Positions 3,856 to 54,431 of a stretch of 64,000 bases of DNA are shown here, piece by piece. The DNA is from a phage. The translations under genes were made by a program, and so were the position numbers. The DNA is taken from assembly GCA_014435945.1 (NCBI GenBank), contig GCA_014435945.1_4088.1; one strand, 5' to 3'. A model generated the notes under the pieces. It was not told the DNA's origin and searched no databases. It saw only the letters and a program-made list of their open reading frames with translations. Positions within the stretch are counted from its first letter, which is position 1. Every line of letters starts with the position of its first letter.

Positions 3856-5295
3856 ATGAAAAAATATACAATTGACACAAACGTACTACTATCTGATCCA
3901 AATGCTACCATTGCTTTTGATGGAGCAGCTATCATTCTACCGTTCACAGTACTTGAAGAATTGGATTCAATCAAAAGTCGTAATGTGGATGTTTCCCGTG
4001 ATGCTCGTGTTGCAATCCGTAACATTGAAGCTATCCTTTCTGATGCATCACATGAAGAAATTAGTAGTACTGGTGTTAATATTGCTGATGTTCATACTAA
4101 TATGAGTCCTGAAAGCAAATTGTTTGTTATTACAAGCGAAGAAGCTGAAGCACTAATTCGTACTGCTGGTAACGAAGAGAAAGTTCAAACTCTTCTAAAA
4201 AGCACAGTACCAGATGATAAAATCATTTTAGTAGCATTAGCAACTGATTCAGTACTGGTTACCCGTGATATCAATATGCGTATCAAGGCTCTAAGCTACG
4301 GGGTGGAAGTTCAAGATTACCGTCATGATATCGTGATTGGTGATAGTGATTTGATTCACATTGGTCAACATCACCTTGACCTACATTTCTGGGATGTGTA
4401 TAGTAATCTGACTGATGTATCTATTCAGTCTGAACAAGTTGGTCGTCGTTTGTACCACTACATTCCAAAAAGCTTGATTGAACATATCATGCCACAAAAT
4501 ATTTGCATCGGTGATTACCTATATGATAATGCTGATGTTCTATTTGTGTACGAAGGTCAATCTGCAATTGAAGAAGATGATGGTACTTTAACACCAGAAG
4601 ATATTCTTGTATTCCAAGATATTGGACAATCCGTTGCTCTACGTGCTAAAGTGTGGGATATTAAGGCTAAGAATATTCAACAAGCACTAGCAATCAACAG
4701 TATCCTAGATCCTGATGTTCATCTAACAGTACTGTTAGGTTCAGCAGGTACTGGTAAAACACTAATCACCATTGCAACTGCACTAGAGTTAGTTCTAGAG
4801 AAGAAAAAATACGACCGTATCATCTTCTCCAAAACACAAGATTCCCAATTCGAAGACATTGGTTTCTTGCCTGGTTCTGAAGCAGAGAAAGTGATTCCTT
4901 TCTGTGGTGCGGCAATCGATGCGTTGGAATTCCTACACAAAGATGATGCTAACCCACAAGGCAGTATCGAAGAAATCATGAAACGCAATGTTATCCAATT
5001 CAAAGCACTAAACTTCGTTCGTGGTCGTTCTTTCACAAATACTATCCTAGTAGTTGATGAATTCCAGAACATCACACCTGCTCAGGCAAAAACAATCTTG
5101 ACTCGTGCAGGGATGAACTGTAAAGTGGTTATTATGGGCAACTTGAGCCAGATTGACTCTAAATTCATTAGTCCAGTAAACAGCGGCCTAACTTATGTTA
5201 CCGAGAAGTTCAAGAACTGGGACGGCTGTCGTGTAATCGAACTAGAAGGTGTCGTTCGTTCACCACTAGCAGAATTTGCAGAAGAAAATATGTAA
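3856..5295 (+). CDS. phoH: PhoH-like ATPase with N-terminal PIN domain
   Basis: N-terminal PIN-like IDTNVLL; C-terminal Walker A LLGSAGTGKT and Walker B ILVVDEFQN typical of PhoH. Confidence 0.85.
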   Translation: MKKYTIDTNVLLSDPNATIAFDGAAIILPFTVLEELDSIKSRNVDVSRDARVAIRNIEAILSDASHEEISSTGVNIADVHTNMSPESKLFVITSEEAEALIRTAGNEEKVQTLLKSTVPDDKIILVALATDSVLVTRDINMRIKALSYGVEVQDYRHDIVIGDSDLIHIGQHHLDLHFWDVYSNLTDVSIQSEQVGRRLYHYIPKSLIEHIMPQNICIGDYLYDNADVLFVYEGQSAIEEDDGTLTPEDILVFQDIGQSVALRAKVWDIKAKNIQQALAINSILDPDVHLTVLLGSAGTGKTLITIATALELVLEKKKYDRIIFSKTQDSQFEDIGFLPGSEAEKVIPFCGAAIDALEFLHKDDANPQGSIEEIMKRNVIQFKALNFVRGRSFTNTILVVDEFQNITPAQAKTILTRAGMNCKVVIMGNLSQIDSKFISPVNSGLTYVTEKFKNWDGCRVIELEGVVRSPLAEFAEENM

Positions 5296-13638: not shown

Positions 13639-16335
13639 ATGTCAAAGAAAATATATGGTGGCTTAGACGTCACTCATAATGTGACAGTTAAAGGGAAAAG
13701 AACAGTACAGGGCATCAATGATCAAGTATTTGATGCTAATGGTAATATGGAAATTGATACATATTCCAAAGAAGAATTACTTGATGTAATTAGTTTACTT
13801 CCAATCTCGCATTATGGTACACATAACTATCTACCTGCTGGGGTATCTGGTGATTTTAATGGTGCATCAGAAAACCAATCCCAACGTAGAAACAAAATAC
13901 TTTTAGAAAACGATGGCACATTAGTACTATTACGTAGTGGTACAAACGGTAGTGTTGAAGGTTTGTTTTATTCTTACCTAGCGAACGCATTATCCGTTAC
14001 CGATATGAGCCGTACTGTTAATACAAGCCGTCAGTATAAGCCTGGCTATTTTGGGGCAAACCGTGTTGCTATTGGTTTATACAATACCGATTCAAAAATA
14101 CTGTTAGGTCGTTACAATGACACATCTACCAATACTAATGGGTTGTTTATATCAGTAACGAATGGTACATTGGATGATACACAACATAGTGGTCTTTTTG
14201 TGAACCAAGCTGATATTTCACCTGAAGGTGGGATTGAGTATGCTATGATGGCAGAAGACGGTTCAGTTTATGTATTCAACGTCCTTAATGAAAATAACAA
14301 ACTACAGATTGTTGTTGTTCGTGTTGTATTGAATATTGCAAACGGTACTTATACTGCTACCCGAATCACGGGGTGGACAACAAAAACTTTTTATAATACT
14401 ACATATACTGCTCAGAATAATATGATCATTACTGACCATGTTAACTCAACTAATATTGCTGATAAGCCCTATGTCTATGTACCACAAAATTTGGCTGGTA
14501 TGGGGATTTATATGACATCTATCGATTTATATGTTGCTCAGGAGCCAGGAACGCAGAACTTCCGATTCAGAATGAATGGTGACGCATGGTTCACTATGGC
14601 AAACTACAATACCCGACCACAGCATAGTTATAGTTTCAATTTTAACATGAGTACTAAACAATGTAACTTGGATAATGGGAACGATATTGGTACATTTGCT
14701 GCACCATTTGTTGTTACAAACACAGGTTCGGCATTGGTTGCTACTGGTAATGTTCTCAACAACGATCCGTTATATGACCATAGCGGTGCAAGAAACATTT
14801 ACAGTTCATATTATTATTTGAATACAGGTGAAGTATTCTGTACTGCATGTCCAAACTTAGCAGAACCATTACTTATGCAGAAAGCTAAATTTACTGCACA
14901 ATCAATATATAGCATGATTAATGTACGTGCGAACATTTCAACTGATTTCAGAAATGGCATAGTTCGTCCTTCATTTGGTTCAGCAGTTGGTTCTTTTATT
15001 AACGGCGTAGAATTGCTTCCAGGGAACAGTACTAAACAGTATTCTCGTTCAACTGGTTCTGGTGCATTCCGTCCATCTTATGCAGTTCATAAAAGTACTC
15101 CTAACTTTACGTTTAATTCTTTATCACGTGGAACCATACAAGGTTATGAGCCAACAACAGAACGTGCTAATGTGACAGATAACACGAACAACAGAGTTTT
15201 TATTAGTTCCATTAGTGGTAATAATGTTACTACAAATGGTGGGATATTCATGGTAGGTCAGAGATATTCCCAATCACTATCATATGATAAAAATATGAAC
15301 GGAACTGGTATCATTAGTGTTACTCAATCTGTACTTGATAATTTCAGAAATGCTGAATACGCTAAAGTACTAAGCGACTGGAACTTATCTTCTGCTGCTT
15401 ATAAAGATATGACATTGTTTGTTCCACAACAAACTGATATACCTGCATTCGTAATGCTAAGTACAGTTACAAATACATATCAGAACTATATTAGAATTGC
15501 TGAAGTGAATGTGAATACACGTTCAGGTAATATCACTACAATTACCTTCAAGCGTTTAGTACTAGAAAACGTTTACGGAAGTAACTTTACACCAAATGGT
15601 AATGGTAGTTTTGCATCGTCTTCTGTTGGTTTAACAATATATGATGGTGGTTCTTTCTACTTCATAGGTGGTTCTGACCCATTATCTCACCCAACTATAG
15701 GTAATACAAGTACACATCAATTTAGAGCATATGTAACAAAAGCTACTGCACAATTTGATAGTTTTATTATCAGTGGTTCACATGCAAGTTATGAGCAAGG
15801 TATTCAACCAGCAGCTTTACCTGGTATTGGTTTTGGTTATTTCCAAGCAATAGACTATGTAAACAAAATGACTTTCCAAAAATGTGGTACTACAATTGCT
15901 GATTATAATAACTGGACTGCTCAAGGTGCACCGATTAACGTAGTTTCACAAGACGTTGCTCAAGGTTTTATTGTGTACTTCACAGAAGAAACTCCAGTAA
16001 TTCTTTCTGGTAAAGCATTTACATTACCGATTACTAGTATAAACTTAACTACAGTTAAGGCTAATCCAGCAAACACATTATTTCATGTATATGTTAAAAT
16101 GGAACAAGGTAATGCAAAATATGTAATAACAACTGATGTTATTTCAGAGACTGGTACTACAGCATATAATATTTTCTGGATAGGTACTATACAAACAAAC
16201 TCACTACAAATATCAAATGTTAACATACAAAAACGTTCAAGATTGGATATTTTCGGTGCGTCTCTTGAAGCTGCTGGTTCTTCATTCCCAGTTAGTTATG
16301 GTCTACCGTCACAAACAGGAACAATCAATTGGTAA
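13639..16335 (+). CDS. tail fiber / receptor-binding protein, paralog 1
   Basis: 898-aa S/T/N/G-rich protein; shares N-terminal LPISHYG module and C-terminal GSSFPVSYGLPSQTGTINW module with 16348 and 16952. Confidence 0.55.
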   Translation: MSKKIYGGLDVTHNVTVKGKRTVQGINDQVFDANGNMEIDTYSKEELLDVISLLPISHYGTHNYLPAGVSGDFNGASENQSQRRNKILLENDGTLVLLRSGTNGSVEGLFYSYLANALSVTDMSRTVNTSRQYKPGYFGANRVAIGLYNTDSKILLGRYNDTSTNTNGLFISVTNGTLDDTQHSGLFVNQADISPEGGIEYAMMAEDGSVYVFNVLNENNKLQIVVVRVVLNIANGTYTATRITGWTTKTFYNTTYTAQNNMIITDHVNSTNIADKPYVYVPQNLAGMGIYMTSIDLYVAQEPGTQNFRFRMNGDAWFTMANYNTRPQHSYSFNFNMSTKQCNLDNGNDIGTFAAPFVVTNTGSALVATGNVLNNDPLYDHSGARNIYSSYYYLNTGEVFCTACPNLAEPLLMQKAKFTAQSIYSMINVRANISTDFRNGIVRPSFGSAVGSFINGVELLPGNSTKQYSRSTGSGAFRPSYAVHKSTPNFTFNSLSRGTIQGYEPTTERANVTDNTNNRVFISSISGNNVTTNGGIFMVGQRYSQSLSYDKNMNGTGIISVTQSVLDNFRNAEYAKVLSDWNLSSAAYKDMTLFVPQQTDIPAFVMLSTVTNTYQNYIRIAEVNVNTRSGNITTITFKRLVLENVYGSNFTPNGNGSFASSSVGLTIYDGGSFYFIGGSDPLSHPTIGNTSTHQFRAYVTKATAQFDSFIISGSHASYEQGIQPAALPGIGFGYFQAIDYVNKMTFQKCGTTIADYNNWTAQGAPINVVSQDVAQGFIVYFTEETPVILSGKAFTLPITSINLTTVKANPANTLFHVYVKMEQGNAKYVITTDVISETGTTAYNIFWIGTIQTNSLQISNVNIQKRSRLDIFGASLEAAGSSFPVSYGLPSQTGTINW

Positions 16336-16347
16336 AGGATTAATCTT

Positions 16348-16935
16348 ATGGCATATATTATAAGATCCGATATCGAAGCTATGTCACAAATCGTAGTCCA
16401 GAATAAAAACACTGGACTATCTATTAGTGATATTAATGACGTATCGTATCGAACAGACGCAAATGGGGAATGTACATTCCCCCTCTTAACAAAAGATGAA
16501 GTTGATTCTATTGTTAACGGTTTACCATTATCACAATATGGTGAACTTTATGATGTATCTAGTTTGTCAATTACATCAAGCGGTTATTCATTACGTTTTA
16601 ACCGAGAGATACCTGCATTCATCGGTGGCTATCTTTATAATTACCCTGTTGTTGCAGTGACAGCACCAACAGTTGTATCAGGAACACAAACACAATATGT
16701 ATACGCTACTTTAGTACTGGGTGAGCCAATTTATAGAATCTCAACTTCACAATTACAAGAATCACAGATTATAATGTTCATCGGGACTATTACCGTTGGA
16801 ACTTCTGGTATTACTGCTATCAACATTGAACGCGTATCACGATTCAATACATACAGACCAAGTACAACACAAAAAGGTTCATCTTTCCCAGTCAGTACTG
16901 GAAATCCAACACAAACTGGTACATTAGGCTGGTAA
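16348..16935 (+). CDS. mini fiber paralog (N- and C-terminal fiber modules only)
   Basis: 195 aa; LPLSQYG N-terminal module and RFNTYRPSTTQKGSSFPVSTGNPTQTGTLGW C-terminus matching flanking fibers. Confidence 0.4.
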   Translation: MAYIIRSDIEAMSQIVVQNKNTGLSISDINDVSYRTDANGECTFPLLTKDEVDSIVNGLPLSQYGELYDVSSLSITSSGYSLRFNREIPAFIGGYLYNYPVVAVTAPTVVSGTQTQYVYATLVLGEPIYRISTSQLQESQIIMFIGTITVGTSGITAINIERVSRFNTYRPSTTQKGSSFPVSTGNPTQTGTLGW

Positions 16936-16951
16936 TTAAAGGAAAAAGAAT

Positions 16952-19681
16952 ATGTCATCCAAACGCATCATTGGTAGTGCTGCTATACTTGGAAATTTAG
17001 CAATTGGTGGAAAGTACGCTATGCGTACTTTTAATGGTACAGCACCAGACGCAAATACAGGTATTGTTAACTATCCAATTTATAAAAGATCAGAAGTTCA
17101 AAAAATACTTGATATGTTACCAATCTCCCGTATAGGGGAAATGGATTATCTACCATTAAACGTTAATGGTTCATACGAAGGGGCAACGTCGCTTTCAGAT
17201 GTATACCGTATGCAACCAACAATAGTCGAAGATGATGGTACTGGTGTGGTATTACGTGCTGGTACAAATGGTAGTACTGAAGGATATTACTATGCATTCA
17301 TTCGTGATTTGCGTAATATTGATGCACTAACACAAAGTAGTGTTATCAGTACTACATCAAAATATCATCCTAGAATTCTTCCAAGTACTGAAAATGTTAA
17401 ACAGTTTATCGGAACGAATGGTTATGAATTACTAGTTAGCCTATCTAGTGCAAGTAATTATATTTTCACTTTAACAAATGGTACATTTAACGAAGTTGCA
17501 CATATTCACGCTTCTATCGCTGCTACATCATTTGGTACAGATAAACCATTGTATGCACATATCGTTAATGATAAAGTATTTGTGTGGTGCAAAGACACTA
17601 CTATAGCAAACTATGGTTTGGCTTTAACATTATATACTGTTAATACAAGTAGTATTAAAGATGGTACTATGAGTACTTTTGCTAAGGTTACTGGTTTTTC
17701 TGGTCAAACCTTAAGAAGTGTTAACTACACAAGTGCTAATAATTTGAAAATTTATGAAAGATTATATTCAGTTGGAACTAGTAGTGATTCATTATTTGAA
17801 TGCACTTCACCAGTTACACGAGTTGAATATTCAGATTATACAGATTATAATATACAAGCAAACGTAAGTCCAGATTTATCAAAGATTAGAATTACATTAT
17901 TCCCAACTAACCGTTTAGTATCAAATCTATATATTAGTACTGTTTATGCTAGTGGTTTTAGTTTTGTTTATACTATCAACTCTAAATCATTATCAATTGA
18001 TGGAAGTAGTAGAGCACCAATAGCAGCGGAATATAATGATGTTGATGGATTCACATTAACAAACCCATTTGCCATTGAGATGAACAACTTCATGGGTACA
18101 CAGTTAGGTGTTCCGCAATTAGGTAACGTTGGTTCTATATGCCAAACCTATGACGGTTTAGTATTCAGTACTCGTGCTCGTTGGAGTTCTTCTGAAACCT
18201 ATGGTATTCAGGTTTATAACGTAACAGGAACACCATATGATAGTTGGGTTGCCAGTACTCGCAAAGCGAACAATTCTAAATTTGTAAACGTTGCCCCAAC
18301 ATATGGTAGTGCAGTAGGTGAAAACCTTTTAGGAACACGTTTTATTGATAAACGTAAAGTACTGTTAGCATGTTCTGGAACATATGAAGATGAGTCATAT
18401 GGTTATAACAATACAGTATTTTCTGAAATTGGCACTGATCCAACCTTCCAGTTCAATTCAGTACAAAACAATACAACACTTAATGGTTTTGCACCACAAG
18501 CCAACCGAACTCGCCTCGGCGACAACTACAAATATACAGGTATGATTTCATTAATTGATACTGACGGTTCAGTTAAATGTTATGGGACATCATTCATTGA
18601 AGGTGTATACAAAACAAGTGGTGGTTTGTTTAACCCAGATACTTTAGAATTTGATGGTTCTTATACAATTGGTGATAATGTTCTGGAAACATTAAAACAA
18701 GAAATACTTGCTAATATTGGAATAGTAGGAGCATTTACTGGTAAAATTGCTTTATATTATGTACCAGATAGTTCTTTCTCAAAATCTATTGCGGTGGTTT
18801 CTGCATATAACTTAGGAAATAACCAAGGTTATGCAATATATTCTGAAGTTGATGTCACTGTTTCAGGAACCAATATTAGTTCTGCGTCTATGGTGAGTTC
18901 TAGATACGAAACACTTAATTCTGTAACAGGTATTGTAACCGAAGCCTATATGAAACGCTGTACTGGTCTAACTGTTGCTAAGTATTCTGGTTTTGGTTAT
19001 ATTGGTGTTGATGCAGTTCATCAGTTTTCACAACCTGGTAATGCTCAATTCAAATTGATGATTGCTAAAACAGTGAATGGTTTGATTACATCTAACCGAT
19101 TTATGTCATCCAGCTACATAGATAATGGCAATGCATTCCAGCACGGAGTTATACCAGGTGTTGGATTTGGATACTATCATCTTCAAGATTCAGATTATCA
19201 AACTAAAGCAGTGTTTAGTCTCTTTGGGACAACATCAGCACAGATGGATGGGTTGATTGATGGTTCAGGAACTGTACAAGATAAAATCGTAGTAGTTTCA
19301 CAAGATGTTGCTGAAGGTTTCACTGTGTACTTCACCCGTGAAGTTCCGGTATTCCTTGGTGGTATGTTTGATAGATTAGCGATTCAAACCATAGAATTAA
19401 GTACTATTAAAACTAACCCAGCTAACAGTACTTTTTATCTTTACATTCAAATGAACCGTAACACAAGAAAAGCGGCATACGTTATCAGTACAACTCTTCT
19501 TGATGAGACATTGACAAACGTATATGTTGGTGATATTGTTACTGGAAGTACGAGTATTACGTCAATTGATACTGAAAAGGTAACCCGATTCTTGACATAC
19601 AGACCTAGTACGACCAAGCGTGGTTCTGCTATCCCAGCAAGTACTGGTGTTCCTTCAAGCTCTGGTACACGTTGGCATTAA
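16952..19681 (+). CDS. tail fiber / receptor-binding protein, paralog 2
   Basis: 909 aa; LPISRIG N-terminal module; C-terminus RFLTYRPSTTKRGSAIPASTGVPSSSGTRWH. Confidence 0.55.
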   Translation: MSSKRIIGSAAILGNLAIGGKYAMRTFNGTAPDANTGIVNYPIYKRSEVQKILDMLPISRIGEMDYLPLNVNGSYEGATSLSDVYRMQPTIVEDDGTGVVLRAGTNGSTEGYYYAFIRDLRNIDALTQSSVISTTSKYHPRILPSTENVKQFIGTNGYELLVSLSSASNYIFTLTNGTFNEVAHIHASIAATSFGTDKPLYAHIVNDKVFVWCKDTTIANYGLALTLYTVNTSSIKDGTMSTFAKVTGFSGQTLRSVNYTSANNLKIYERLYSVGTSSDSLFECTSPVTRVEYSDYTDYNIQANVSPDLSKIRITLFPTNRLVSNLYISTVYASGFSFVYTINSKSLSIDGSSRAPIAAEYNDVDGFTLTNPFAIEMNNFMGTQLGVPQLGNVGSICQTYDGLVFSTRARWSSSETYGIQVYNVTGTPYDSWVASTRKANNSKFVNVAPTYGSAVGENLLGTRFIDKRKVLLACSGTYEDESYGYNNTVFSEIGTDPTFQFNSVQNNTTLNGFAPQANRTRLGDNYKYTGMISLIDTDGSVKCYGTSFIEGVYKTSGGLFNPDTLEFDGSYTIGDNVLETLKQEILANIGIVGAFTGKIALYYVPDSSFSKSIAVVSAYNLGNNQGYAIYSEVDVTVSGTNISSASMVSSRYETLNSVTGIVTEAYMKRCTGLTVAKYSGFGYIGVDAVHQFSQPGNAQFKLMIAKTVNGLITSNRFMSSSYIDNGNAFQHGVIPGVGFGYYHLQDSDYQTKAVFSLFGTTSAQMDGLIDGSGTVQDKIVVVSQDVAEGFTVYFTREVPVFLGGMFDRLAIQTIELSTIKTNPANSTFYLYIQMNRNTRKAAYVISTTLLDETLTNVYVGDIVTGSTSITSIDTEKVTRFLTYRPSTTKRGSAIPASTGVPSSSGTRWH

Positions 19682-19689
19682 AAATTTTA

Positions 19690-19717
19690 AGCTCGTCTAT
19701 TGACGGGCTTTTCTTTT
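19690..19717 (+). terminator. intrinsic terminator
   Basis: AGCTCGTC-tatt-GACGGGCT hairpin (one G-U pair) followed by T-rich run. Confidence 0.55.
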
Positions 19718-19728
19718 ATGTGTATAAT
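19700..19728 (+). promoter_or_regulatory. sigma70-type promoter
   Basis: TTGACG, 17-nt spacer, TATAAT; 24 nt upstream of the 19752 ORF. Confidence 0.6.
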
Positions 19729-19751: not shown

Positions 19752-20318
19752 ATGGTCAAATCTTTACTACCACCACCAAAGCGTCACAAAATCCAAGAAA
19801 TGAAAGACCAACGTACATTAAAGATGTACAACAATTTAGTTAAGTTACTGTGTAAAAGTCCATCGCTCAAAGCAGAGTTTAAAACTGATGATGACCGCAA
19901 AGCACTAATTGAGATGAAGTATATGCTCAGTAAAATGTCCTTTTACAAATTTGTAAAAGAATACGCATCTGACCCATTTAGTCCTCGTTGGAGAACCAAA
20001 CCAAGAGAGTTTTTTTTCGGTGGTTCATATACTGATATCATTCAAGATACTGTGATAGGCGTAGAGTTCGAGATTGATTATGAGCCGAATGGTGTGGAAA
20101 ACTTGCTGATTGAGAAACGTTTACCAAGTGAAGAAGAAATTTATGTTTATGCAAGAAAACTTTCAACTTACAGTTCAAGAATTACTCTAGGCAAGTTAGA
20201 TTCATTTATTATTTTCTATATACGTGTTGGTGTAGATAAAATGGTAACTAAACTCAATGAACTTTCATTACAACAAAAACAGATTAATGCATACAAAGAC
20301 ATTACTGATTTATACTAA
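19752..20318 (+). CDS. hypothetical protein, tandem paralog A
   Basis: Shares TDDDRKALIEMKYMLSK-type motif with the next two ORFs; ATG after CAGGAGG. Confidence 0.5.
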   Translation: MVKSLLPPPKRHKIQEMKDQRTLKMYNNLVKLLCKSPSLKAEFKTDDDRKALIEMKYMLSKMSFYKFVKEYASDPFSPRWRTKPREFFFGGSYTDIIQDTVIGVEFEIDYEPNGVENLLIEKRLPSEEEIYVYARKLSTYSSRITLGKLDSFIIFYIRVGVDKMVTKLNELSLQQKQINAYKDITDLY

Positions 20319-20324
20319 TGAGGA

Positions 20325-20846
20325 ATGAATATGTTTTTTGGCCCAGTTGGAAAACAAAACAGTACTTTAATTTGGCATGAAATTATCTTTAAAATTATAT
20401 CAAAAAGTTTCACACTTAAAGATATCATCAATACAGATCAAGATCGTCGTGTTCTGTTAGAAGCAAAATATAAATTGAGCAAACACCCTTTGCTACCATT
20501 AATCATTGATTACGTTAATGATTATGAATCCAGTCGTTGGAAGTTTGAAGAAGGCGGTTTATTTCGTGGAAAAACATTCTACGGTGCGGAACGATATGTA
20601 TTCAGTGATGCAACAAATGGCGTTAAGTTTGCTATTAGAAACTTTAACTCCAAAGAAAATGATTATCTTGAAAGTGGAGTGAAAGTATATATCGATAATA
20701 ATAGCAATGTTCTAACATATGACGAATCACTAATTATGTTACAAATAATGCGTGGCGTTGAAGGTGTAAGACACAATCTTACTAATTTGAAAATTCAGCA
20801 AAATGATATACATAATAGACAGAAAATTAAGGGTTTATATAAATGA
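20325..20846 (+). CDS. hypothetical protein, tandem paralog B
   Basis: Motif TDQDRRVLLEAKYKLSK; similar length. Confidence 0.5.
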   Translation: MNMFFGPVGKQNSTLIWHEIIFKIISKSFTLKDIINTDQDRRVLLEAKYKLSKHPLLPLIIDYVNDYESSRWKFEEGGLFRGKTFYGAERYVFSDATNGVKFAIRNFNSKENDYLESGVKVYIDNNSNVLTYDESLIMLQIMRGVEGVRHNLTNLKIQQNDIHNRQKIKGLYK

Positions 20847-21352
20847 TTTCATTTTTCAAAAAGAAAGAAAAAGTTGATGAAACTGGATTAGAATCGTTTC
20901 TATGGACTCTTATCATCAAAAAAAGTCCATTGATAAAAGAATATGCCATCAATGATACTAATAGAAAAACTATCATTGAATACAAATACGAATTATCAAA
21001 ATGTGATCCGATTGTTTACCACTTTGTAAAGTACTGTTCTAAAAATTTATCGGATATCACCATTGATTATGAGTCAGTACCAATGAGTTTTCCTTATGGA
21101 GATTGGGTAAATACTTATGATATTTTTGATGGGTCTAACGGATTCAATTTTTATTTCACATCAAATAAAGCATATGTTCGAATCAAAACAGATATAGGTT
21201 GGGCATTACATAGCTCAAATAAAGAAGATTATAATTTATTAGCTGATGTATACAGAAGTGTTAAGAATTCAAAGGATATTGATGAAAGAATTAAAAAGCA
21301 AAATCGCATTTCTTTATCTTTAGAAACATATAAGTCAAAGTACGGTGGTTAA
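20843..21352 (+). CDS. hypothetical protein, tandem paralog C
   Basis: Motif NDTNRKTIIEYKYELSK; start overlaps upstream stop. Confidence 0.5.
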   Translation: MISFFKKKEKVDETGLESFLWTLIIKKSPLIKEYAINDTNRKTIIEYKYELSKCDPIVYHFVKYCSKNLSDITIDYESVPMSFPYGDWVNTYDIFDGSNGFNFYFTSNKAYVRIKTDIGWALHSSNKEDYNLLADVYRSVKNSKDIDERIKKQNRISLSLETYKSKYGG

Positions 21353-21354
21353 TT

Positions 21355-21756
21355 ATGACTACAATCGATGATATCTACAGTACTATACGCAATATGAGTA
21401 CAGATAGAAAAGTCTTTGGTGACAAAGAAAAGTCCAAATGTTATGGCATCGATTCTTTTGATATTATTTCATACGAATATAATAACAATGGGACAAGTTC
21501 ACTAAACATTGTGTGTCCACGAGATCCAGAAAATAATTTCATGTACGTTGAAATTAACAATGATGGTATGTTCTTTACTAAAGTATATAAAGGTGGGAAA
21601 GAATACGAACCCATCGAAGTAATGAATGAAGAGAAATTCTTCCAAGAAGATACCATCATCAATCTTGGATTTAGTTACAATGACTATCAAGTACTGGATC
21701 ATGATTTTAAACGATACTATAATGGTTTTCTAAAGGAGTTAACGATTTACTTATGA
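21355..21756 (+). CDS. hypothetical protein
   Basis: 133-aa ORF. Confidence 0.45.
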   Translation: MTTIDDIYSTIRNMSTDRKVFGDKEKSKCYGIDSFDIISYEYNNNGTSSLNIVCPRDPENNFMYVEINNDGMFFTKVYKGGKEYEPIEVMNEEKFFQEDTIINLGFSYNDYQVLDHDFKRYYNGFLKELTIYL

Positions 21757-22991
21757 AAAACAATTTTCTAGAACAAACTATTGTGAAACACTTAGCTGGT
21801 TCACAGGCGTATGGCACAAGCACACCAGAAAGTGATACAGATTATCGTGGTATCTTCCTTGCAAACAAAGAATATATCCTAACTCCTTTTTTTAATGTTA
21901 AGGAAGTTTCAGATACTTCTGAAGAAGATACTAAATTTTATGAAATCAATCAGTACTTAAGTCTGTATACTGAAGCTAACCCAAACATTCTTGAATCACT
22001 ATGGGTTAAACCGGAACACATCGTAGAAAGTACTGAAATCTATGACTATCTACGCTCATTCAATCAGCAATTATTGAGTTCAAAGATTGCACATTCATAC
22101 AGTGGTTATGCATACAATCAGGTTAAGCGTATGTCTAATCACCACGGCTGGCTCGATAAGGAACGAATTGCTGAACGTAAACTAAATGAAATTTTAGAAG
22201 AACATCCAGTTGACGAAGTACTTTCATGGATGTATGATACATTCCCGCAGTATTTGGTAGACCGTTTGAATAAATCCAATCTTCACCCATTCAATGCTAC
22301 AAAAATTGATTTTGAAAAATACATGCGTGATACTTCATTACAATTAGTTTCAACACAAGCATTGAAACAATATCATTTTGTACGTTTAGTACATAATTAT
22401 AGTACTGACAAAGTATTAGATCGTGATTTCAATTTATTGAATTACAATTCAGGGTATGAACTAATCCATTACGGTGAAAACATCTTTGGGGTAATTATCA
22501 ACCCGAATGAAAGTACAGTGAATGCTGATGGTTCACTACGTTACTTCAACAAAGAACGTACTACAGAAGAATTGAAAGTTCGTCCTGAACTCATTGTAAA
22601 ATTCAATGAAAAGGAATACAAAGAAAATAGTGAGAACCGTAAGAGTTATCACAAATGGAAGCAGAATCGTAATGCCAAACGTGCTATTCTTGAATCACAC
22701 CACGGTTATGACTGCAAACATGCTATGCATACAATCAGGCTGCTGAATACAGCACAGGAAGCACTTGAAACTGGTATCATCCAAGTTCACCGACCGGATG
22801 CTGCTATGTTGATGGACATTCGTAACGGGAAGTGGTTGTATCAAGAAGTTATGGATTATTTCAACGAAAAGGTTGACTACATCCGAAATGTGGCGTATCA
22901 TAAGACCCATCTACCGAAGCGACCAAACATAAAGTTGGCTACGAAGGTACTATTAGATATCCGTGAAATGCAATGGTACAGTAAAAAATAA
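21753..22991 (+). CDS. Pol-beta-superfamily nucleotidyltransferase (possibly PF10127-like)
   Basis: N-terminal GSQAYGTSTPESDTDYRGIF (GS ... [DE]xD NTase motif). Confidence 0.45.
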   Translation: MKNNFLEQTIVKHLAGSQAYGTSTPESDTDYRGIFLANKEYILTPFFNVKEVSDTSEEDTKFYEINQYLSLYTEANPNILESLWVKPEHIVESTEIYDYLRSFNQQLLSSKIAHSYSGYAYNQVKRMSNHHGWLDKERIAERKLNEILEEHPVDEVLSWMYDTFPQYLVDRLNKSNLHPFNATKIDFEKYMRDTSLQLVSTQALKQYHFVRLVHNYSTDKVLDRDFNLLNYNSGYELIHYGENIFGVIINPNESTVNADGSLRYFNKERTTEELKVRPELIVKFNEKEYKENSENRKSYHKWKQNRNAKRAILESHHGYDCKHAMHTIRLLNTAQEALETGIIQVHRPDAAMLMDIRNGKWLYQEVMDYFNEKVDYIRNVAYHKTHLPKRPNIKLATKVLLDIREMQWYSKK

Positions 22992-23001
22992 GAGGATTGT
23001 T

Positions 23002-23418
23002 ATGCTAAACGAACAAATCAAAGACGCACTACGTGTACTGAATCGCGAAGTTAACCGCATCCAGAAAAGTACTGATCGTTATAAACTAATGCATGAACTT
23101 AGACTTTCGTTGGAAGCTATCAATAATGGCGAATGGTATCTTGAACCAGAATATCGCACTCGTGAATTAACTGACGTTGAAAAAGCAATTGTCAAATTCA
23201 TTACAAGTCGCGACAAAAATGCATCCGAAAAAGATGTATCAATGAACTTCCATCTTACTAAATGTGAAGTCGTGGAAAAATTTAAATTCGATTGGCTTGA
23301 CTGGATTGAAATGATCATGGAACTTGAAGAAGAATTCAAAGTTGAAGTTGATTTGGAATACGAGAATGAAAACACTAAACTGTATAAACTCGTAGATCAT
23401 ATTCAAAAAATGTTGTAA
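23002..23418 (+). CDS. acyl-carrier-protein-like domain protein (attachment Ser replaced)
   Basis: C-terminal FDWLDWIEMIMELEEEF aligns with ACP DSLDTVELVMALEEEF, Trp in place of the phosphopantetheine Ser; ATG after AAGAGGA. Confidence 0.45.
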   Translation: MLNEQIKDALRVLNREVNRIQKSTDRYKLMHELRLSLEAINNGEWYLEPEYRTRELTDVEKAIVKFITSRDKNASEKDVSMNFHLTKCEVVEKFKFDWLDWIEMIMELEEEFKVEVDLEYENENTKLYKLVDHIQKML

Positions 23419-24771: not shown

Positions 24772-24780
24772 TATGTTATG

Positions 24781-24815
24781 ATAGGGACTTGAGAAATCGA
24801 GTCCCTATTTTTTTT
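24781..24815 (+). terminator. intrinsic terminator
   Basis: ATAGGGACT-10 nt loop-AGTCCCTAT hairpin followed by T7; GGAG and ATG follow directly. Confidence 0.75.
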
Positions 24816-25183: not shown

Positions 25184-25581
25184 TGCTAAAAGAATTAGAT
25201 TTTTCAAACTTAGAAATCATCAGTGCTGTTAAAAATATCTCTGACTTTGGAGATGAGAAGTCAGTACTGGTAACTGTTACATTCGTCAAAGAACAGGATA
25301 GCTATAGCCATTTAGATGGTATTGAAGAACTAATTCACAAGACTAATCTACAAAACGATGGTAAACTCATTAAGCTTCAGGCTTCCTATACGCAAAAATC
25401 GTCATTTTTTGTAGACCTAAATAATGTAGTCAAGGTGGTATACAATCACCCTGAACACAAATACAGGAACACGACAAGAAACGAGAATGATGCTATAGAC
25501 TCCAATATCAAAGAGGATGTCGAATTCATCAACACAATTTTTGACCGTTGTTCCAAGGATTTGAAAAAGGTATACATGTAA
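25183..25581 (+). CDS. hypothetical protein
   Basis: ATG overlapping upstream stop (TAATG); ORF track gave GTG at 25168. Confidence 0.45.
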   Translation: MLKELDFSNLEIISAVKNISDFGDEKSVLVTVTFVKEQDSYSHLDGIEELIHKTNLQNDGKLIKLQASYTQKSSFFVDLNNVVKVVYNHPEHKYRNTTRNENDAIDSNIKEDVEFINTIFDRCSKDLKKVYM

Positions 25582-25601
25582 CGGGACATAACACATCCTA
25601 G

Positions 25602-25610
25602 TGATATAAT
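25602..25610 (+). promoter_or_regulatory. extended -10 promoter element (TGATATAAT)
   Basis: TGnTATAAT; same 9-mer recurs at 36899, 40505, 52848 and 55908. Confidence 0.45.
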
Positions 25611-25887
25611 GTATATTGTAAAATGACAACGGACATTGAAAAATGGATAATGAGAACCTACTTCTCTTGAAAATGTAAAGGATAGATGAGCTTTACCGTT
25701 GTAGCGAACAGCAAAAGAAACCTGTTAGAGTACTGGCAATCAAACAAACACGAGATAAGACCACGAATCACGGCGACACGGCTGTATAAAGAACTCCAAT
25801 AAGCACACAGAGAGTTCCTAGATAGATGTATAAGGTTCGCACCTTACGAATTTGCTAAGGGAGTTCAAGGATTGTGGACGCGATTTT

Positions 25888-25916
25888 ACAAGAAAGTTGC
25901 GTCCAAAATTTGAGAA
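25888..25916 (+). repeat. direct repeat copy 1 (core CGTCCAAAATTTGAGAA)
   Basis: ACAAGAAAGTTGCGTCCAAAATTTGAGAA; 17-nt core identical to copy at 26053. Confidence 0.7.
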
Positions 25917-26040
25917 CAGGTACTACTTTGATCGAATAGAGTTTAGTACTGAGTGCTGTTGATGAAAAGACCAGCGACCGTTGCATATGACTGCGATAGA
26001 GAGAAACCGAGCAACCCGCTTTCGCTCTCTAAATTTTGGT

Positions 26041-26069
26041 ACAGGAAAGATCCGTCCAAAATTTGAGAA
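26041..26069 (+). repeat. direct repeat copy 2 (core CGTCCAAAATTTGAGAA)
   Basis: ACAGGAAAGATCCGTCCAAAATTTGAGAA; core identical to copy 1. Confidence 0.7.
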
Positions 26070-26108
26070 ATTCGCAATTCGATAATATCCGATGCCATCA
26101 TCGTCAAG

Positions 26109-26131
26109 AGAGACTTAATTGTCTCTTTTTT
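26109..26131 (+). terminator. intrinsic terminator (short stem)
   Basis: AGAGAC-ttaatt-GTCTCT followed by TTTTT. Confidence 0.45.
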
Positions 26132-26137
26132 ATTACC

Positions 26138-26161
26138 TTCATTCCCCTGCGGGGGGATGAA
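26138..26161 (+). other. stable GC-rich hairpin with UGCG loop
   Basis: TTCATTCCCC-tgcg-GGGGGATGAA (10 bp with G-U pairs); no following T-run. Confidence 0.5.
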
Positions 26162-26271
26162 ATAGTCCTCAACAAATCCCGTCAAGCTTTTAAAGTACAT
26201 TATCATTTTCAGAAGGAACTAGTTTACGAAGTAAACGTAGTGACTTCTTGAGTTACGAGAGAACGAAGTGA

Positions 26272-26700
26272 ATGAGTAACACAACGAAAATATCCAATAC
26301 ATCTGAATTAACACAAATGTTATTCAAAGAATATTTTGAGTATCAAATCAAAAGCGATCATAATTTGGTTCAGACCTATTTGAAGAGAATCAAAGATCCA
26401 TTAAGTTTAAACAAAGGAACTGAATTTTATAACAGTATTTTAGATTTTATTAATTTAGTTCATACAAACAGACCTATTGTAGTTTTCTTCTTTGATAAAT
26501 CAATTCCTGTAGAAGTTCCTGATAATGTATTTTTTGTTACAGAAACTGATTTAAGTAATCAAAGTACTGTAAGTAGATTAAGGAATTGCTTACTTATAAT
26601 TTGTGATTCTTCATTATATAACAATAGAGTACTATGGAATAGAAGTAAGAGAAATGCAGTTTCAGAAATGAATCCTGAAGTTACCTTTATTATTAACTAA
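26272..26700 (+). CDS. hypothetical protein
   Basis: 142-aa ORF, very AT-rich. Confidence 0.45.
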   Translation: MSNTTKISNTSELTQMLFKEYFEYQIKSDHNLVQTYLKRIKDPLSLNKGTEFYNSILDFINLVHTNRPIVVFFFDKSIPVEVPDNVFFVTETDLSNQSTVSRLRNCLLIICDSSLYNNRVLWNRSKRNAVSEMNPEVTFIIN

Positions 26701-34244: not shown

Positions 34245-34577
34245 ATGCTAGATTTAGTTATCCAAGGTAATGTTGATATTACTCCAGCAATCAATTACGC
34301 GATTCATGCAGAAGCAAATGCACTAACGAAGTTTAGTGATTCTTCAGTACTTTATATCGGTGTTCATGTGAAGAAAGAGCATAAGTCTCAATACTCTGTG
34401 ACTCTAACATCAGGTAGTAAATCAGTTACTGCCGATGCAGCAGATTTATACAAGGCGATTGCTGATTCATTTGAAAAAATGGAAACTGTATTCAGTAAAG
34501 ACAAAAGCATTAAATTGCACCGCCGAAACCATCCAGAACATCCAGTTCAAGAAGACTTGACTGACAACGAAGAGTAA
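34245..34577 (+). CDS. hypothetical protein
   Basis: 110-aa ORF. Confidence 0.5.
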   Translation: MLDLVIQGNVDITPAINYAIHAEANALTKFSDSSVLYIGVHVKKEHKSQYSVTLTSGSKSVTADAADLYKAIADSFEKMETVFSKDKSIKLHRRNHPEHPVQEDLTDNEE

Positions 34578-35758: not shown

Positions 35759-36874
35759 ATGAAAAAGTATTTGGTTGGTGGCTACGTTCGTGACCGTTTA
35801 ATGGGCATCCGTGCAAAAGACAAAGATTATGTTATTGTTGGTGCTACCGAATCCGATATTAAGTACTTGCAAAGTATTGGATACAAGCAAGTAGGTAAGG
35901 ATTTCCCTGTATATCTAAGTCCAGAAGGTAATGAACACGCATTAGCCCGTACTGAGCGTAAAACTGGTACTGGATATGGTGGCTTCGAAGTGAATACAAA
36001 AGGTGTGACACTAGAACAAGATCTATATCGTCGTGATCTCACAATCAATAGTATTGCATATGATCCAGTACTCCAGATTCACATCGACCCTTATGGCGGG
36101 AAAGCTGATATCAAGAACAAAGTACTTCGTCATGTATCAGAACACTTTAAAGAAGATCCATTGCGTGTTCTACGTTTGGCCCGTTTCGCTACGCGTTACT
36201 CCGACTTTACAATCCATGATGATACTATGACAATGTGTAAAGATATGGTTAGTACTGGTGAACTAGACCATCTAGTCCCAGAACGTGTATTTGTTGAATT
36301 CGAAAAAGCACTTTCTGAAGAAAACCCTTCCAAGTTTATCAAAACTCTGGTACAATTTGGTTATTACGAAAAGGCATTTACTACAGTTCCAGTTACCAAG
36401 AAACGTCTGGAATTAATTGATGCTATCGCTGCAAATTGTACAGAAGAATATAAACCATATTTCTTATGGACAGTACTTCTTGAAAATGAAGAAGTAAATA
36501 ATGATTCAGTACTTAACGGTTCCATTAAGGTTCCAGTTAAGTACGTGAAGTTTAGTAATTACATCAAGCGTTTCCGTGAAGATATTAAAACCTTCCGTAA
36601 GAAGACCCCAGTTGAAATGGGGCAAATCTTACTGGATATGAATATCAAAAACAATGGTGGTGAAGATTTCCTTTACAAAGTACTGGAAAACTTCATTTTG
36701 AACAAAGAAATTGATTCTGAACTTGAAGATTTGATTATTAAAGTTTATGATCGTTATACTGATGTTGAATTACCTGATATTCAGCAGTTAGTGAAAGATG
36801 GTGAACTCCAAACATCGGAGATTCGTGATTTTGTTGCTGAATTGCGTATTGAAGCAATCAAGCAAATGTTCTAA
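35759..36874 (+). CDS. cca: tRNA nucleotidyltransferase (CCA-adding enzyme)
   Basis: Head-domain motifs GGYVRDRLMG, DxD, RRDLTINSIAYD, ERKTGTGYGGF. Confidence 0.85.
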   Translation: MKKYLVGGYVRDRLMGIRAKDKDYVIVGATESDIKYLQSIGYKQVGKDFPVYLSPEGNEHALARTERKTGTGYGGFEVNTKGVTLEQDLYRRDLTINSIAYDPVLQIHIDPYGGKADIKNKVLRHVSEHFKEDPLRVLRLARFATRYSDFTIHDDTMTMCKDMVSTGELDHLVPERVFVEFEKALSEENPSKFIKTLVQFGYYEKAFTTVPVTKKRLELIDAIAANCTEEYKPYFLWTVLLENEEVNNDSVLNGSIKVPVKYVKFSNYIKRFREDIKTFRKKTPVEMGQILLDMNIKNNGGEDFLYKVLENFILNKEIDSELEDLIIKVYDRYTDVELPDIQQLVKDGELQTSEIRDFVAELRIEAIKQMF

Positions 36875-36898
36875 AAGCTGGGACAAGTTAACATCTTC

Positions 36899-36907
36899 TG
36901 ATATAAT
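36899..36907 (+). promoter_or_regulatory. extended -10 promoter element (TGATATAAT)
   Basis: TGATATAAT 43 nt upstream of the Nudix ATG. Confidence 0.4.
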
Positions 36908-36949
36908 TACTAGTATCTGAACATCACTTGATGATAAAGAGATAAGATT

Positions 36950-37394
36950 ATGCGTTATAGCTGTGGTATAATATTTTATCGTGATGGTCAGATACTTATC
37001 GGGCATACAACACGGACAGAATCACTGGGACTTACCTAAAGGTAAAACTGAAGGTACAGAAACATTTAAAGAGGCTGCTGTACGTGAATGCTACGAAGAG
37101 ACAGGATATGAAATCGATGAAGATGATCTTCTGTTTCTTGGTGATGTATCGTATAGAAAGGGGAAACGTTTAGTTTTATTTTTCTATACAGCCAAAGATA
37201 AGCCTATACCAGAAGAGTTGGTGTGTAAAAGTACTTACACAAACAGATATGGTAGAAGTCACCCAGAATTGGATAAGTTCATGTACATTGATGTACTAGA
37301 TTGTCAAAAGTATTTGACTGAACGAATGTGTAACAGTATAATAAAGGCTGTTACAATGTTTCAACGAAATAAAGGGAAAAGAAATGAAAGTTAA
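36950..37394 (+). pseudogene. Nudix hydrolase with apparent +1 frameshift near codon 25
   Basis: Frame A (ATG 36950) encodes Nudix-like N-terminus GIIFYRDGQILIGHTTR then stops at 37037; frame B (+1) encodes LPKGKTEGTETFKEAAVRECYEETGY (perfect Nudix box) to 37394. Confidence 0.55.
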
Positions 37395-37632
37395 AATTTA
37401 TGGTCGCACTACTGGTTGTAAATTCTGCGACACTGCTAAAGCAGTATGTGAAAATAACAAATTTGATATGGAGTTTATCGATATTGTTACCGCTGGTATT
37501 GATGGTGCTAAACTATCTGAACTATGTGGTGAGCCAGTACGACAGGTTCCACAAATTTTCGTAAACGATGTTTACGTTCCAGGTGGCTGTACTGGTTTCG
37601 TTGAAGGTCTTAAAGAAGGTCGCTGGAATTAA
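37384..37632 (+). CDS. glutaredoxin/thioredoxin-like protein (NrdC-like)
   Basis: 82 aa; active-site CKFC near N-terminus; size and pattern as T4 NrdC/NrdH-type redoxins. Confidence 0.7.
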   Translation: MKVKIYGRTTGCKFCDTAKAVCENNKFDMEFIDIVTAGIDGAKLSELCGEPVRQVPQIFVNDVYVPGGCTGFVEGLKEGRWN

Positions 37633-37874
37633 TGAATATTGATAAAGTATCATCTCGTGCAAAACATTTAGCTGACACATTGGGTGTTGAATTTAAAATG
37701 CCTGATATGGAAGCTGCAAAAGTTAAAGCACAACGTAAAATTCACAAAATGAAAGAATACACTACTAAGAAAGAACAGTACGATAAAGCGGTTGCTTATA
37801 TTATTGAAGCTTTCAGTAAAGATGATATTTTGGCATTCATCGCTTCAGTAGAGGTTTCGAGCAACCCTAAATAA
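37632..37874 (+). CDS. hypothetical protein
   Basis: 80-aa ORF overlapping upstream stop. Confidence 0.4.
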   Translation: MNIDKVSSRAKHLADTLGVEFKMPDMEAAKVKAQRKIHKMKEYTTKKEQYDKAVAYIIEAFSKDDILAFIASVEVSSNPK

Positions 37875-37919
37875 TAATGAAGAACACAAGTTCTTCGTAA
37901 CAATTTGGGAGATACTATT

Positions 37920-38162
37920 ATGCTCAGTTTTCGTGAACAATTAGCAAAAGGCCAATTCGCTGCTAAAGCTCAAACATCCATTCCTAAAAAGTCTGCTTTC
38001 TTAGGGACGATTACAGAAGATGGTTATTGTGATTATAATGCACCAGAAGATTCATGGTACATTACGAAAGACACAAAACGTGGTAATAGACTTCACAAAA
38101 GTACCATTGCTCGCAAACAACGAAAAGAATTGAAAAAAATTCGATTCGGTGAAGAAGAATAA
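37920..38162 (+). CDS. hypothetical basic protein
   Basis: ATG after GGGAGA (ORF track gave TTG at 37905). Confidence 0.4.
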   Translation: MLSFREQLAKGQFAAKAQTSIPKKSAFLGTITEDGYCDYNAPEDSWYITKDTKRGNRLHKSTIARKQRKELKKIRFGEEE

Positions 38163-38173
38163 AATATAAATTA

Positions 38174-38203
38174 AGGACTCTGATTACAGAGTCCTTTCTT
38201 TTC
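38174..38203 (+). terminator. intrinsic terminator
   Basis: AGGACTCTG-atta-CAGAGTCCT followed by TTCTTTTC then GGAG. Confidence 0.75.
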
Positions 38204-38213
38204 GGAGAATATA

Positions 38214-38690
38214 ATGATACATGAACACCTAGGTAATTTGTTTGAATTGTTCAACTCTGTTACTGATGATCAAACCGCGTTGCATATAATCGCTCATGGT
38301 TGTAATGCACAGGGTAAGATGGGTTCGGGTTTTGCAAAAGAACTAAGAAATCGTTACCCGATGGCATATGATGATTATAAAGCATATGAAAAGGAAATGG
38401 GATTTCTAAGAACAGGACAAATTTCATATTCTTCTATAAGTGATGATTTGCTTATCGCAAACTGCATTACCCAACAGTACTATGGTAATGACGGTTCTAA
38501 GTATGTAAGTTATGATGCAATCGATGATGTTTTCAAACAACTAAATTACTTATGTAACGTTGAACGCACTGTTCATGTACACTTCCCGAAAATTGGAGCC
38601 GATTTAGGCGGTGGTAACTGGAACGTTATCAAAGAAATCATTGACCACAGACTGGTTAATGCAGAAAAACACTTATACATTCTAAAATAA
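38214..38690 (+). CDS. macro-domain protein (ADP-ribose binding/processing)
   Basis: ALHIIAHGCNAQGKMGSGFA resembles the macro-domain motif [IV]xHxxNCQGxMGAGIA. Confidence 0.55.
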   Translation: MIHEHLGNLFELFNSVTDDQTALHIIAHGCNAQGKMGSGFAKELRNRYPMAYDDYKAYEKEMGFLRTGQISYSSISDDLLIANCITQQYYGNDGSKYVSYDAIDDVFKQLNYLCNVERTVHVHFPKIGADLGGGNWNVIKEIIDHRLVNAEKHLYILK

Positions 38691-54356: not shown

Positions 54357-54380
54357 TAATTAAAAAGAGTGTTGACAAGG

Positions 54381-54406
54381 AGGATACCACATGGTATCCT
54401 TCTTTT
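54381..54406 (+). terminator. intrinsic terminator
   Basis: AGGATACC-acat-GGTATCCT followed by TCTTTT. Confidence 0.6.
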
Positions 54407-54431
54407 ATCTTAACTAAACGAGGAAATACAA

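Follow-up and report, generated by a model that had tools for sequence, protein, structure and literature searches.

The gene at 21753-22991 on the + strand of the phage DNA analyzed here (GenBank assembly GCA_014435945.1, contig GCA_014435945.1_4088.1; the whole stretch of 64,000 nucleotides is called the window) encodes a Pol-beta-type nucleotidyltransferase (NTase) which, judged from its sequence, very probably belongs to the RlaP family (PF10127). Our overall reading is that the protein carries both domains of this family with an insertion and has a role in phage RNA repair, to which we assign a probability of roughly 60%. The NTase is a member of an already known family and is already annotated at a generic level; public records of close Asteriusvirus relatives label the gene "nucleotidyltransferase" (e.g., gp506 of phage 121Q).

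The gene is real and conserved. The open reading frame (ORF) has an ATG start and codes for 412 amino acids (aa), the coordinates including the stop codon, and the opposite strand at 21753-22991 holds no comparable competing ORF. The start overlaps the stop of the upstream ORF (ATGA at 21753-21756), AAGGAG is found 14 nucleotides upstream of it, and the following ORF begins 11 nucleotides past the stop of the NTase gene. The guanine-cytosine content at the gene is 31-37%, in line with its surroundings. The window is 99.0-99.5% identical to the Asteriusvirus jumbo coliphages Ecwhy_1, fEgEco12, vB_Ec-M-J and CMSTMSU, and about 84% identical to phages 121Q and PBECO4. Entries with 100% identity to the protein exist in public databases, 568 relatives were found at E<=1e-5, and 1,079 phage records contain relatives. 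Only one copy of the RlaP-family gene is present in the reference genome vB_Ec-M-J, where a local tblastn detected no paralogue. The gene and its parts are as follows:

21753-22991, + strand: whole gene, probable RlaP-family NTase (ORF translation, Pfam PF10127, phrog_388)
21753-22142, + strand: N-terminal Pol-beta NTase domain with the first part of the long connecting helix, aa 1-130
21798-21803, + strand: G16-S17, catalytic motif
21834-21842, + strand: D28-x-D30, catalytic motif, here D28-T-D30
21927-21929, + strand: D59, third catalytic acidic residue
22161-22355, + strand: insertion tier 2, aa 137-201, found in the jumbo-phage clade only
22356-22670, + strand: insertion tier 1, aa 202-306, middle module
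22671-22988, + strand: predicted RlaP C-terminal helical domain, aa 307-412
22710-22721, + strand: D320-x-K322-H323 motif in the C-terminal domain

Two profiles identify the family. Pfam PF10127 (RlaP) matches aa 14-131 at model positions 25-144 of 249 with 63.3 bits (E=3.7e-17; the gathering threshold is 23 bits), and phrog_388 "nucleotidyltransferase" matches the NTase over its full length (E=5e-75). An earlier note on this DNA had recognized a Pol-beta-type NTase from a GS...[DE]xD motif, GSQAYGTSTPESDTDYRGIF, which corresponds to residues 16-35, and had named PF10127 among the profiles to search. The enzyme class is borne out, and PF10127 proved to be the right family. NCBIfam gave no meaningful match to the protein, and sequence searches against the PDB returned nothing, either with the single protein or with the family profile.

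The NTase has the Pol-beta motif set (hG[GS], [DE]h[DE]h and a third h[DE]h carboxylate), and in the AlphaFold2 (AF2) model its NTase domain shows the strand-helix-strand order expected for the fold. In an alignment of 40 homologues, with identities from 92% down to 37%, the core residues G16, S17, D28, D30, D59, E64 and N76-P-N78 are invariant. The absence of a catalytic acidic triad had been named as the observation that would overturn the assignment; D28, D30 and D59 are present, do not vary among the 40 homologues and align with RlaP of Pseudomonas fluorescens (PfRlaP). By BLASTP, the NTase is 25% identical to PfRlaP over the NTase domain only (E=6e-6), with GS, DxD and D59 facing G39-S40, D51 and D53, and D84, respectively. 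Comparison of the family profile with a Pseudomonas RlaP profile by hhalign gave 92% probability (E=6e-7) over the NTase domain and first helix only; this Pseudomonas profile is shallow, as a second homologue search yielded only close Pseudomonas sequences. Against PfRlaP as a single sequence, only the N-terminal part of the family profile was convincingly aligned. Erwinia jumbo phages have full-length homologues with 57% identity, and T4-like phages match over the N-terminal third of the NTase, where the gene is NrdC.11.

The remainder of the protein had been described in the earlier note as a long uncharacterised C-terminal region. Pfam finds no match to aa 133-412 even at E<=10, and therefore the region is literally unrecognised by standard domain models. 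That part of the description stands, while the rest has to be revised, since residues ~307-409 are, on profile evidence, the RlaP family's own C-terminal helical domain and only ~131-306 are left without explanation. The link is provided by gp145 of Bacillus phage JBP901, a protein of 253 aa whose aa 20-240 span the complete Pfam RlaP model (positions 22-248). Compared with the NTase family, gp145 scores 99.4% probability (E=1e-21); its aa 13-146 pair with aa 4-130 of the query and its aa 147-244 with 307-405, while query residues ~131-306 are left out of the alignment entirely. A pairwise tblastn of gp145 against the NTase likewise gave two matching blocks (E=9e-8 and E=1e-11). A slightly longer C-terminal pairing, of gp145 aa 143-244 with query aa 303-405, was also obtained. 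Because gp145 thus bridges the Pfam model and both ends of the protein, we assign residues ~307-409 to the RlaP helical domain, which occupies positions ~145-249 of the Pfam model, and because residues 131-306 are skipped, we regard them as an insertion. A pairing made by eye between KKYFYVLRPLL and CKHAMHTIRLL was rejected, as the Pseudomonas profile comparisons did not support it; therefore, the bridge through gp145 and Pfam is what we rely on.

The C-terminal module is strongly conserved among the 40 homologues (W302, K303, R306, N307, R310, E314, D320, K322, H326, R329, R347, D349, R357 and G359), and within the domain R310, E314, D320, K322, H326, R329, R347, D349, R357 and G359 are invariant. 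An exhaustive profile search found the module in 5,449 cluster representatives, although Pfam has no match to aa 286-412. Two homologues of about 680-745 aa (P0134 and P0143) carry a Cys-initiated insert of ~328 aa with a LAGLIDADG domain. It directly follows D320 and precedes residue 321 in the invariant G-Y-D-(C/T)-K-H motif (window 22710-22721). This insert looks like an intein from its sequence. Residue 321 is Cys in the NTase and Thr in most homologues. As the putative intein lies exactly in the invariant D-x-K-H motif of these relatives, we counted it in favor of the functional importance of the motif.

This conservation bears on whether the protein could be a dead or purely structural NTase relic, a reading suggested by the position of the gene among large structural-type and lysis genes. 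However, the catalytic residues and about 20 C-terminal residues stay invariant over the whole identity range from 92% to 37%, the intein is kept in a conserved motif of relatives, and the 'virion structural protein' label of one record does not fall on the NTase gene. A relic is therefore extremely improbable.

The NTase departs from the compact two-domain RlaP plan of ~250 aa by the 176-aa insertion (aa 131-306) between the domains. This is an architectural departure by which no family domain is lost. The insertion consists of two tiers, neither of which has a Pfam match. Tier 1 (aa 202-306) measures 97-125 aa in 40/40 aligned homologues and is found in none of the canonical ~250-aa RlaPs; its mean conservation is 0.53, compared with 0.69 for the cores. 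Tier 2 (aa 137-201) has a length of 62-68 aa in each of the 21 homologues that are 407-446 aa long and in P0115, whereas only 5 aa of it remain in each of the 18 shorter homologues (335-377 aa).

The AF2 model of the NTase, with a mean predicted local distance difference test score (pLDDT) of 90.8 and a predicted template modeling score (pTM) of 0.80, is divided accordingly. Along the chain, aa 1-110 form an NTase domain and 112-150 a long helix; 154-209 are a helical piece, 210-284 a small beta module, 286-304 a further helix and 308-409 a helical C-terminal domain. The tier 1 strands are predicted at 210-215, 235-239, 244-249 and 280-284, and tier 2 is predicted to be helical with pLDDT 84-94. 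In a modelled canonical RlaP (pLDDT 86.9), the elements that come after the core are arranged in the same order as in the NTase model, and the modelled RlaP matches phage NTases of 260-345 aa over their full length in a viral structure library. It also matches a 230-aa NTase of the Rak2-like jumbo phage CBB of Pectobacterium (A0A1L2CUJ0 in BFVD) with template modeling (TM) scores of 0.44/0.48. The seemingly uncharacterised region is thus predicted to be a helical RlaP domain plus an insertion, the insertion being the sole unexplained part.

We can only guess at what the insertion does, and recognition of the RNA substrate is one option. A bolder version of this idea is that the insertion is a substrate-selection module which picks out particular broken tRNAs, and possibly the correct nucleotide, so that the enzyme would be a dedicated counter-defence against RloC-type nucleotide-excising anticodon nucleases. 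We consider this version unlikely. If true, it would address a fidelity problem left by the RlaP preprint cited below, namely that random addition of nucleoside monophosphates (NMPs) would mostly produce wrong tRNAs.

The specificity of the enzyme, which the earlier note had listed as unknown, can be addressed at family level. RlaP of P. fluorescens and of P. aeruginosa (PaRlaP) add 1-2 NMPs to RNA 3'-OH ends in vitro, and the deoxy forms (dNMPs) are also taken; the enzyme prefers Mn2+ and is inactive on DNA and on E. coli proteins (Carruthers, Fatma & Huang, bioRxiv 10.64898/2025.12.29.696909). In the same study, RlaP favours the broken anticodon-loop end of a cleaved-tRNA mimic over the acceptor end, and partly restores aminoacylation of repaired tRNA which is short of one nucleotide. 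The crystal structure of PfRlaP consists of an NTase domain and a helical domain that together form a cleft (10.64898/2025.12.29.696909). For jumbo phages, RlaP was reported to be the most prevalent RNA-end-restoring NTase, with a distribution that mirrors RNA ligases, and it was predicted to replace, ahead of ligation, the nucleotides that RloC-type nucleases take away (Iyer et al., 2021; PMC7824862).

Based on these reports and on the gene content of the phage, the following course, which we take to be the most likely one, may be proposed. A host RloC-type anticodon nuclease would cut tRNA and remove a nucleotide. The NTase, which by analogy with its homologues would add 1-2 nucleotides to RNA 3'-OH ends independently of a template, might put the nucleotide back on the broken tRNA, and the phage Pnkp and Rnl1-type ligase would then heal and reseal it. 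The probability that the NTase restores nucleotides on damaged tRNA before ligation is, by this analogy, close to evenly balanced.

The partner enzymes are present at genome level. The vB_Ec-M-J genome, which is 99.3% identical, encodes an Rnl1-type RNA ligase (domains RNA_lig_T4_1 and T4_Rnl1_C), a Pnkp with kinase and HAD_PNKP domains, and five annotated tRNA genes. The ligase and Pnkp lie ~36-39 kb upstream of the NTase gene, just beyond the window. The annotation of vB_Ec-M-J includes no second RlaP paralogue, no second RNA ligase and no RtcB, and nothing informative was found in its first 50 kb. For other members of Asteriusvirus, an RNA ligase and 6-8 tRNAs have been described in the literature. 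The Rnl1-type ligase is common to the Asteriusvirus lineage and the T4-like phages, and the latter also carry NrdC.11 and Pnkp. The earlier note had advised a search for a partner gene; none occurs among the immediate neighbours, and Rnl1 and Pnkp are found at the distance given above. The association with an RNA ligase is thus present at genome level and absent at operon level. The window itself contains a further enzyme of RNA ends:

35759-36874, + strand: class II CCA-adding tRNA nucleotidyltransferase (Pfam PolyA_pol head 5.5e-19, PolyA_pol_RNAbd 3.1e-10)

This gene is labelled 'tRNA nucleotidyltransferase' in vB_Ec-M-J. It adds a second RNA-end-restoring enzyme to the window and is probably a functional associate of the NTase. 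As a separate CCA-adding enzyme is present, CCA addition is covered by another enzyme than the NTase, and the NTase protein has no Pfam match to the PF01743 PolyA_pol head or RNA-binding domain. Neither tRNA genes nor any Rfam family match were found in the window. The co-residence of the NTase with Rnl1, Pnkp and the CCA-adding enzyme supports repair.

Several points weigh against our overall reading. The source papers themselves offer RloC-type damage as no more than a proposal (10.64898/2025.12.29.696909, PMC7824862), and activity has been shown for PfRlaP and PaRlaP only, not for an insertion-bearing member of the phage type (10.64898/2025.12.29.696909). These characterised RlaPs are only ~25% identical to the NTase, and this over the NTase domain alone. 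The C-terminal link to RlaP depends on one intermediate, gp145, together with the Pfam model; the C-terminal profile compared with the Pseudomonas RlaP profile by hhalign gave 0.5% probability, and gp145 itself was nearly negative against that profile. The 176-aa insertion could alter the substrate. Moreover, there is no RNA ligase in the transcription unit of the NTase or anywhere in the 64-kb window, and the neighbours are small ORFs without assigned function, a doubtful ORF resembling an acyl carrier protein (ACP), a spanin pair and an HNH endonuclease.

The strongest competing explanation, which we still find unlikely, is that the NTase acts on RNA 3' ends for purposes other than repair, such as marking host RNAs for decay, maturation of phage tRNAs or priming. 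It would use the same catalytic scaffold as in repair, and PfRlaP labels not only fragments but also full-length tRNA and species of rRNA size, with little specificity for the nucleoside triphosphate (10.64898/2025.12.29.696909). The NTase gene is not operonic with ligase or Pnkp, and some homologues lie close to genes of tRNA-maturation enzymes: in Klebsiella phage KB57 the homologue follows a CCA-adding enzyme at a distance of 2 kb, and in Erwinia phage pEa_SNUABM_50 a Thg1-like tRNA-His guanylyltransferase is encoded 3 kb upstream of it. However, RlaP prefers the broken anticodon-loop end over the acceptor end, a dedicated CCA-adding enzyme is already present, and it fits repair that Rnl1 and Pnkp accompany the family both in T4-likes and in the Asteriusvirus lineage. 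In KB57, a 'hydrolase' with a weak match to PTH2 (peptidyl-tRNA hydrolase) is encoded one gene further upstream of the CCA-adding enzyme.

Two other substrate classes had been put forward as candidates in the earlier note, a nucleotide signal and a protein, and neither found support. A synthase of signals or oligonucleotides could act as counter-defence, either as a HalB-like enzyme whose protein-primed poly-dA keeps the Hailong HalA channel closed or as a CD-NTase-like decoy. The nearest solved structures are in fact Hailong HalB and the KNTase, LinB and MNT-HEPN NTases, which have in common with our protein the general layout of a Pol-beta NTase joined to, or accompanied by, a HEPN-like helical bundle. 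However, this likeness extends only to the generic fold of NTase and helical domain (13-18% identity, TM 0.16-0.19 on the query); sequence similarity is not detectable, structural scores are weak, and partners and substrates are others. There is no PADLOC match at E<=1, and structure matches to CdnE/CD-NTases are negligible (E~0.7-3, TM 0.08-0.09). The combination typical of Hailong (a HalB-type NTase with a HalA effector and Tyr-primed poly-dA) is not seen for the NTase, nor is that of CD-NTase or cGAS-like systems (fold, profile and adjacent effector), and the neighbourhood contains no HalA-like, toxin-like or other effector-like gene. RlaP, moreover, adds only 1-2 nucleotides and requires an RNA 3'-OH, and the RlaP assignment is much stronger. 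A synthase is therefore highly improbable.

Modification of a protein or small molecule, in the manner of MNT/HEPN antitoxins, DrrA/GlnE-like AMPylases or ANT/Lnu-like enzymes, might for instance inactivate a host defence toxin. This is slightly less remote than a synthase, and still improbable. The arrangement of MNT-HEPN pairs, an NTase of ~100-140 aa with a HEPN protein bearing Rx4-6H, is absent here, and the RlaP enzymes studied act on RNA and not on DNA or protein (10.64898/2025.12.29.696909). Collectively, the protein or small-molecule, synthase and dead-enzyme explanations have little or no support.

The NTase gene lies in a co-directional gene block, for which two sites may be the boundaries:

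19689-19728, + strand: putative upstream block boundary with a terminator-like hairpin (19689-19710) and a sigma-70-like promoter match, TTGACG-17-TATAAT (11/12; 19700-19728), in the gap before the ORF at 19752
24780-24809, + strand: putative downstream block boundary with a strong terminator-like hairpin (13-base-pair stem and T-run), immediately behind the end of the HNH endonuclease gene at 24771

Hairpin and promoter sites are no more numerous in this region than expected by chance, and the boundaries are therefore no more than suggestive. Within the block, no domain relevant to a partner was found in the four small ORFs upstream, in the ACP-like ORF, in the spanin pair or in the HNH endonuclease. 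Three tandem paralogous ORFs (188, 173 and 169 aa; 24-31% identity) are found at 19752-21352 (+) upstream of the NTase gene and share a K-S-x-x-L-K...D-R-K-x-L-I-E-x-K-Y-x-L-S-K segment; the three ORFs have no Pfam match. The ORF directly before the NTase gene (21355-21756, 133 aa) is at best a very distant relative of them. Some records label the downstream ORF at 23002-23418 (+) as 'acyl carrier protein' or as 'D-alanyl carrier protein', and an ACP-like ORF is also found a few genes from the NTase gene in an Erwinia jumbo phage. We rejected it as a partner, since its PP-binding match is sub-threshold (E=0.11; 13 bits, with the cut-off at 20.8) and in 121Q two tail-fibre genes are inserted between the two genes.

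Other parts of the window deserve brief mention. Within 35759-38690 (+), the CCA-adding enzyme is accompanied by a NUDIX hydrolase (9.6e-12), a thioredoxin-like ORF and a protein with a weak Macro-domain match (E=5e-4) that bears the label 'phosphatase'; this region may be a module concerned with RNA ends or with NAD/ADP-ribose. At 3856-5295 (+), a PIN domain (4.5e-20) is fused to a PhoH-like ATPase (8.5e-45) in a protein of 479 aa, and the product of 34245-34577 (+) is homologous to ribosome hibernation factors (Ribosomal_S30AE, 2.3e-8). Two ORFs of 898 and 909 aa at 13639-19681 (+), separated by one of 195 aa, have no Pfam domain; the two large ORFs are 'hypothetical' in the closest records, and one record puts 'structural protein' on an overlapping stretch. 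About 690 base pairs at 25581-26272 lack a + strand ORF of at least 50 aa in an otherwise tightly packed + strand region. Promoter-like matches occur there at 25583-25651, no Rfam match was found in 25581-26272, and 121Q annotates a small reverse-strand ORF at this place. At 53028-55841 (+), an AAA-type ATPase ORF precedes a DUF2201 putative metallopeptidase with a VWA-like domain (3e-36, 1e-22); the 'HNH endonuclease' label of the latter in vB_Ec-M-J looks like a mis-annotation. Outside the window, the minus strand of vB_Ec-M-J at 333206-350767 carries 14 tandem paralogous genes of ~370-390 aa labelled 'regulator of chromosome condensation' (RCC1-like).

For annotation, the value of these results is that the unrecognised two-thirds of a widespread phage protein can be read as an RlaP helical domain plus an insertion. 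The present Pfam coverage, which is limited to the N-terminal third, understates the architecture of the family. Coliphages including T4 (via NrdC.11) have the full candidate kit of Pnkp, Rnl1 and an RlaP-type NTase, sometimes with a CCA-adding enzyme, and the proposed RlaP "repair of over-damaged tRNA" is open to genetics in a tractable host. The practical value is modest.

The NTase can finally be compared with the members of its family. Pseudomonas RlaP has the aligned G-S, D-x-D and third Asp in the Pol-beta core and the same plan of an NTase and a C-terminal helical domain, and the phage genome of the NTase likewise encodes an RNA ligase and end-healing enzymes. The NTase is longer (412 aa compared with 262 aa) because of the 176-aa inter-domain insertion, and its C-terminal domain is not directly alignable to that of Pseudomonas RlaP. 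In contrast to the bacterial gene, the phage gene lies outside a ligase operon, the partner ligase is of the 5'-phosphate Rnl1 type and not RtcB, and the activity of the NTase is a prediction from sequence. JBP901 gp145 has the canonical length of 253 aa, lacks the insertion and matches the whole Pfam model; R310, E314, G-Y-D-x-K, R-L-L, R-P and R-N-G are common to gp145 and the NTase.

The phrog_388 proteins of the Vequintavirinae type (KB57 gp159 and that of Pectobacterium phage CB7) resemble the NTase over the full length with 31-36% identity. They have the same domain order and a middle module of ~105 aa, and KB57 gp159 gives the same partial Pfam RlaP match as the NTase. They differ in being 335-377 aa long and lacking residues 137-201.

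T4 NrdC.11, which the preprint places in PF10127 (cluster 5) as "function unknown" (10.64898/2025.12.29.696909), is a more distant relative with 337 aa compared with 412 aa. It lacks the jumbo-specific helical piece of ~65 aa, is ~25-28% identical, belongs to another PHROG-level subfamily and is found by BLAST over the N-terminal third only. By hhalign, however, it aligns with the NTase over essentially the full length (97.6%, E=4.5e-12), including the G-x-D-x-K...H...R helix. Directly downstream of NrdC.11, NrdC.10 of phage AR1 has weak matches to AAA_14 (5.8e-5) and nSTAND3 (4.9e-4), and the T4-type NrdC.10 might be a partner of the T4 RlaP-family protein. As in the NTase, Pfam covers only the N-terminal part of NrdC.11 (here half), the protein is extended between the NTase domain and the helices at its C terminus, and Rnl1 and Pnkp are encoded in the same genome.

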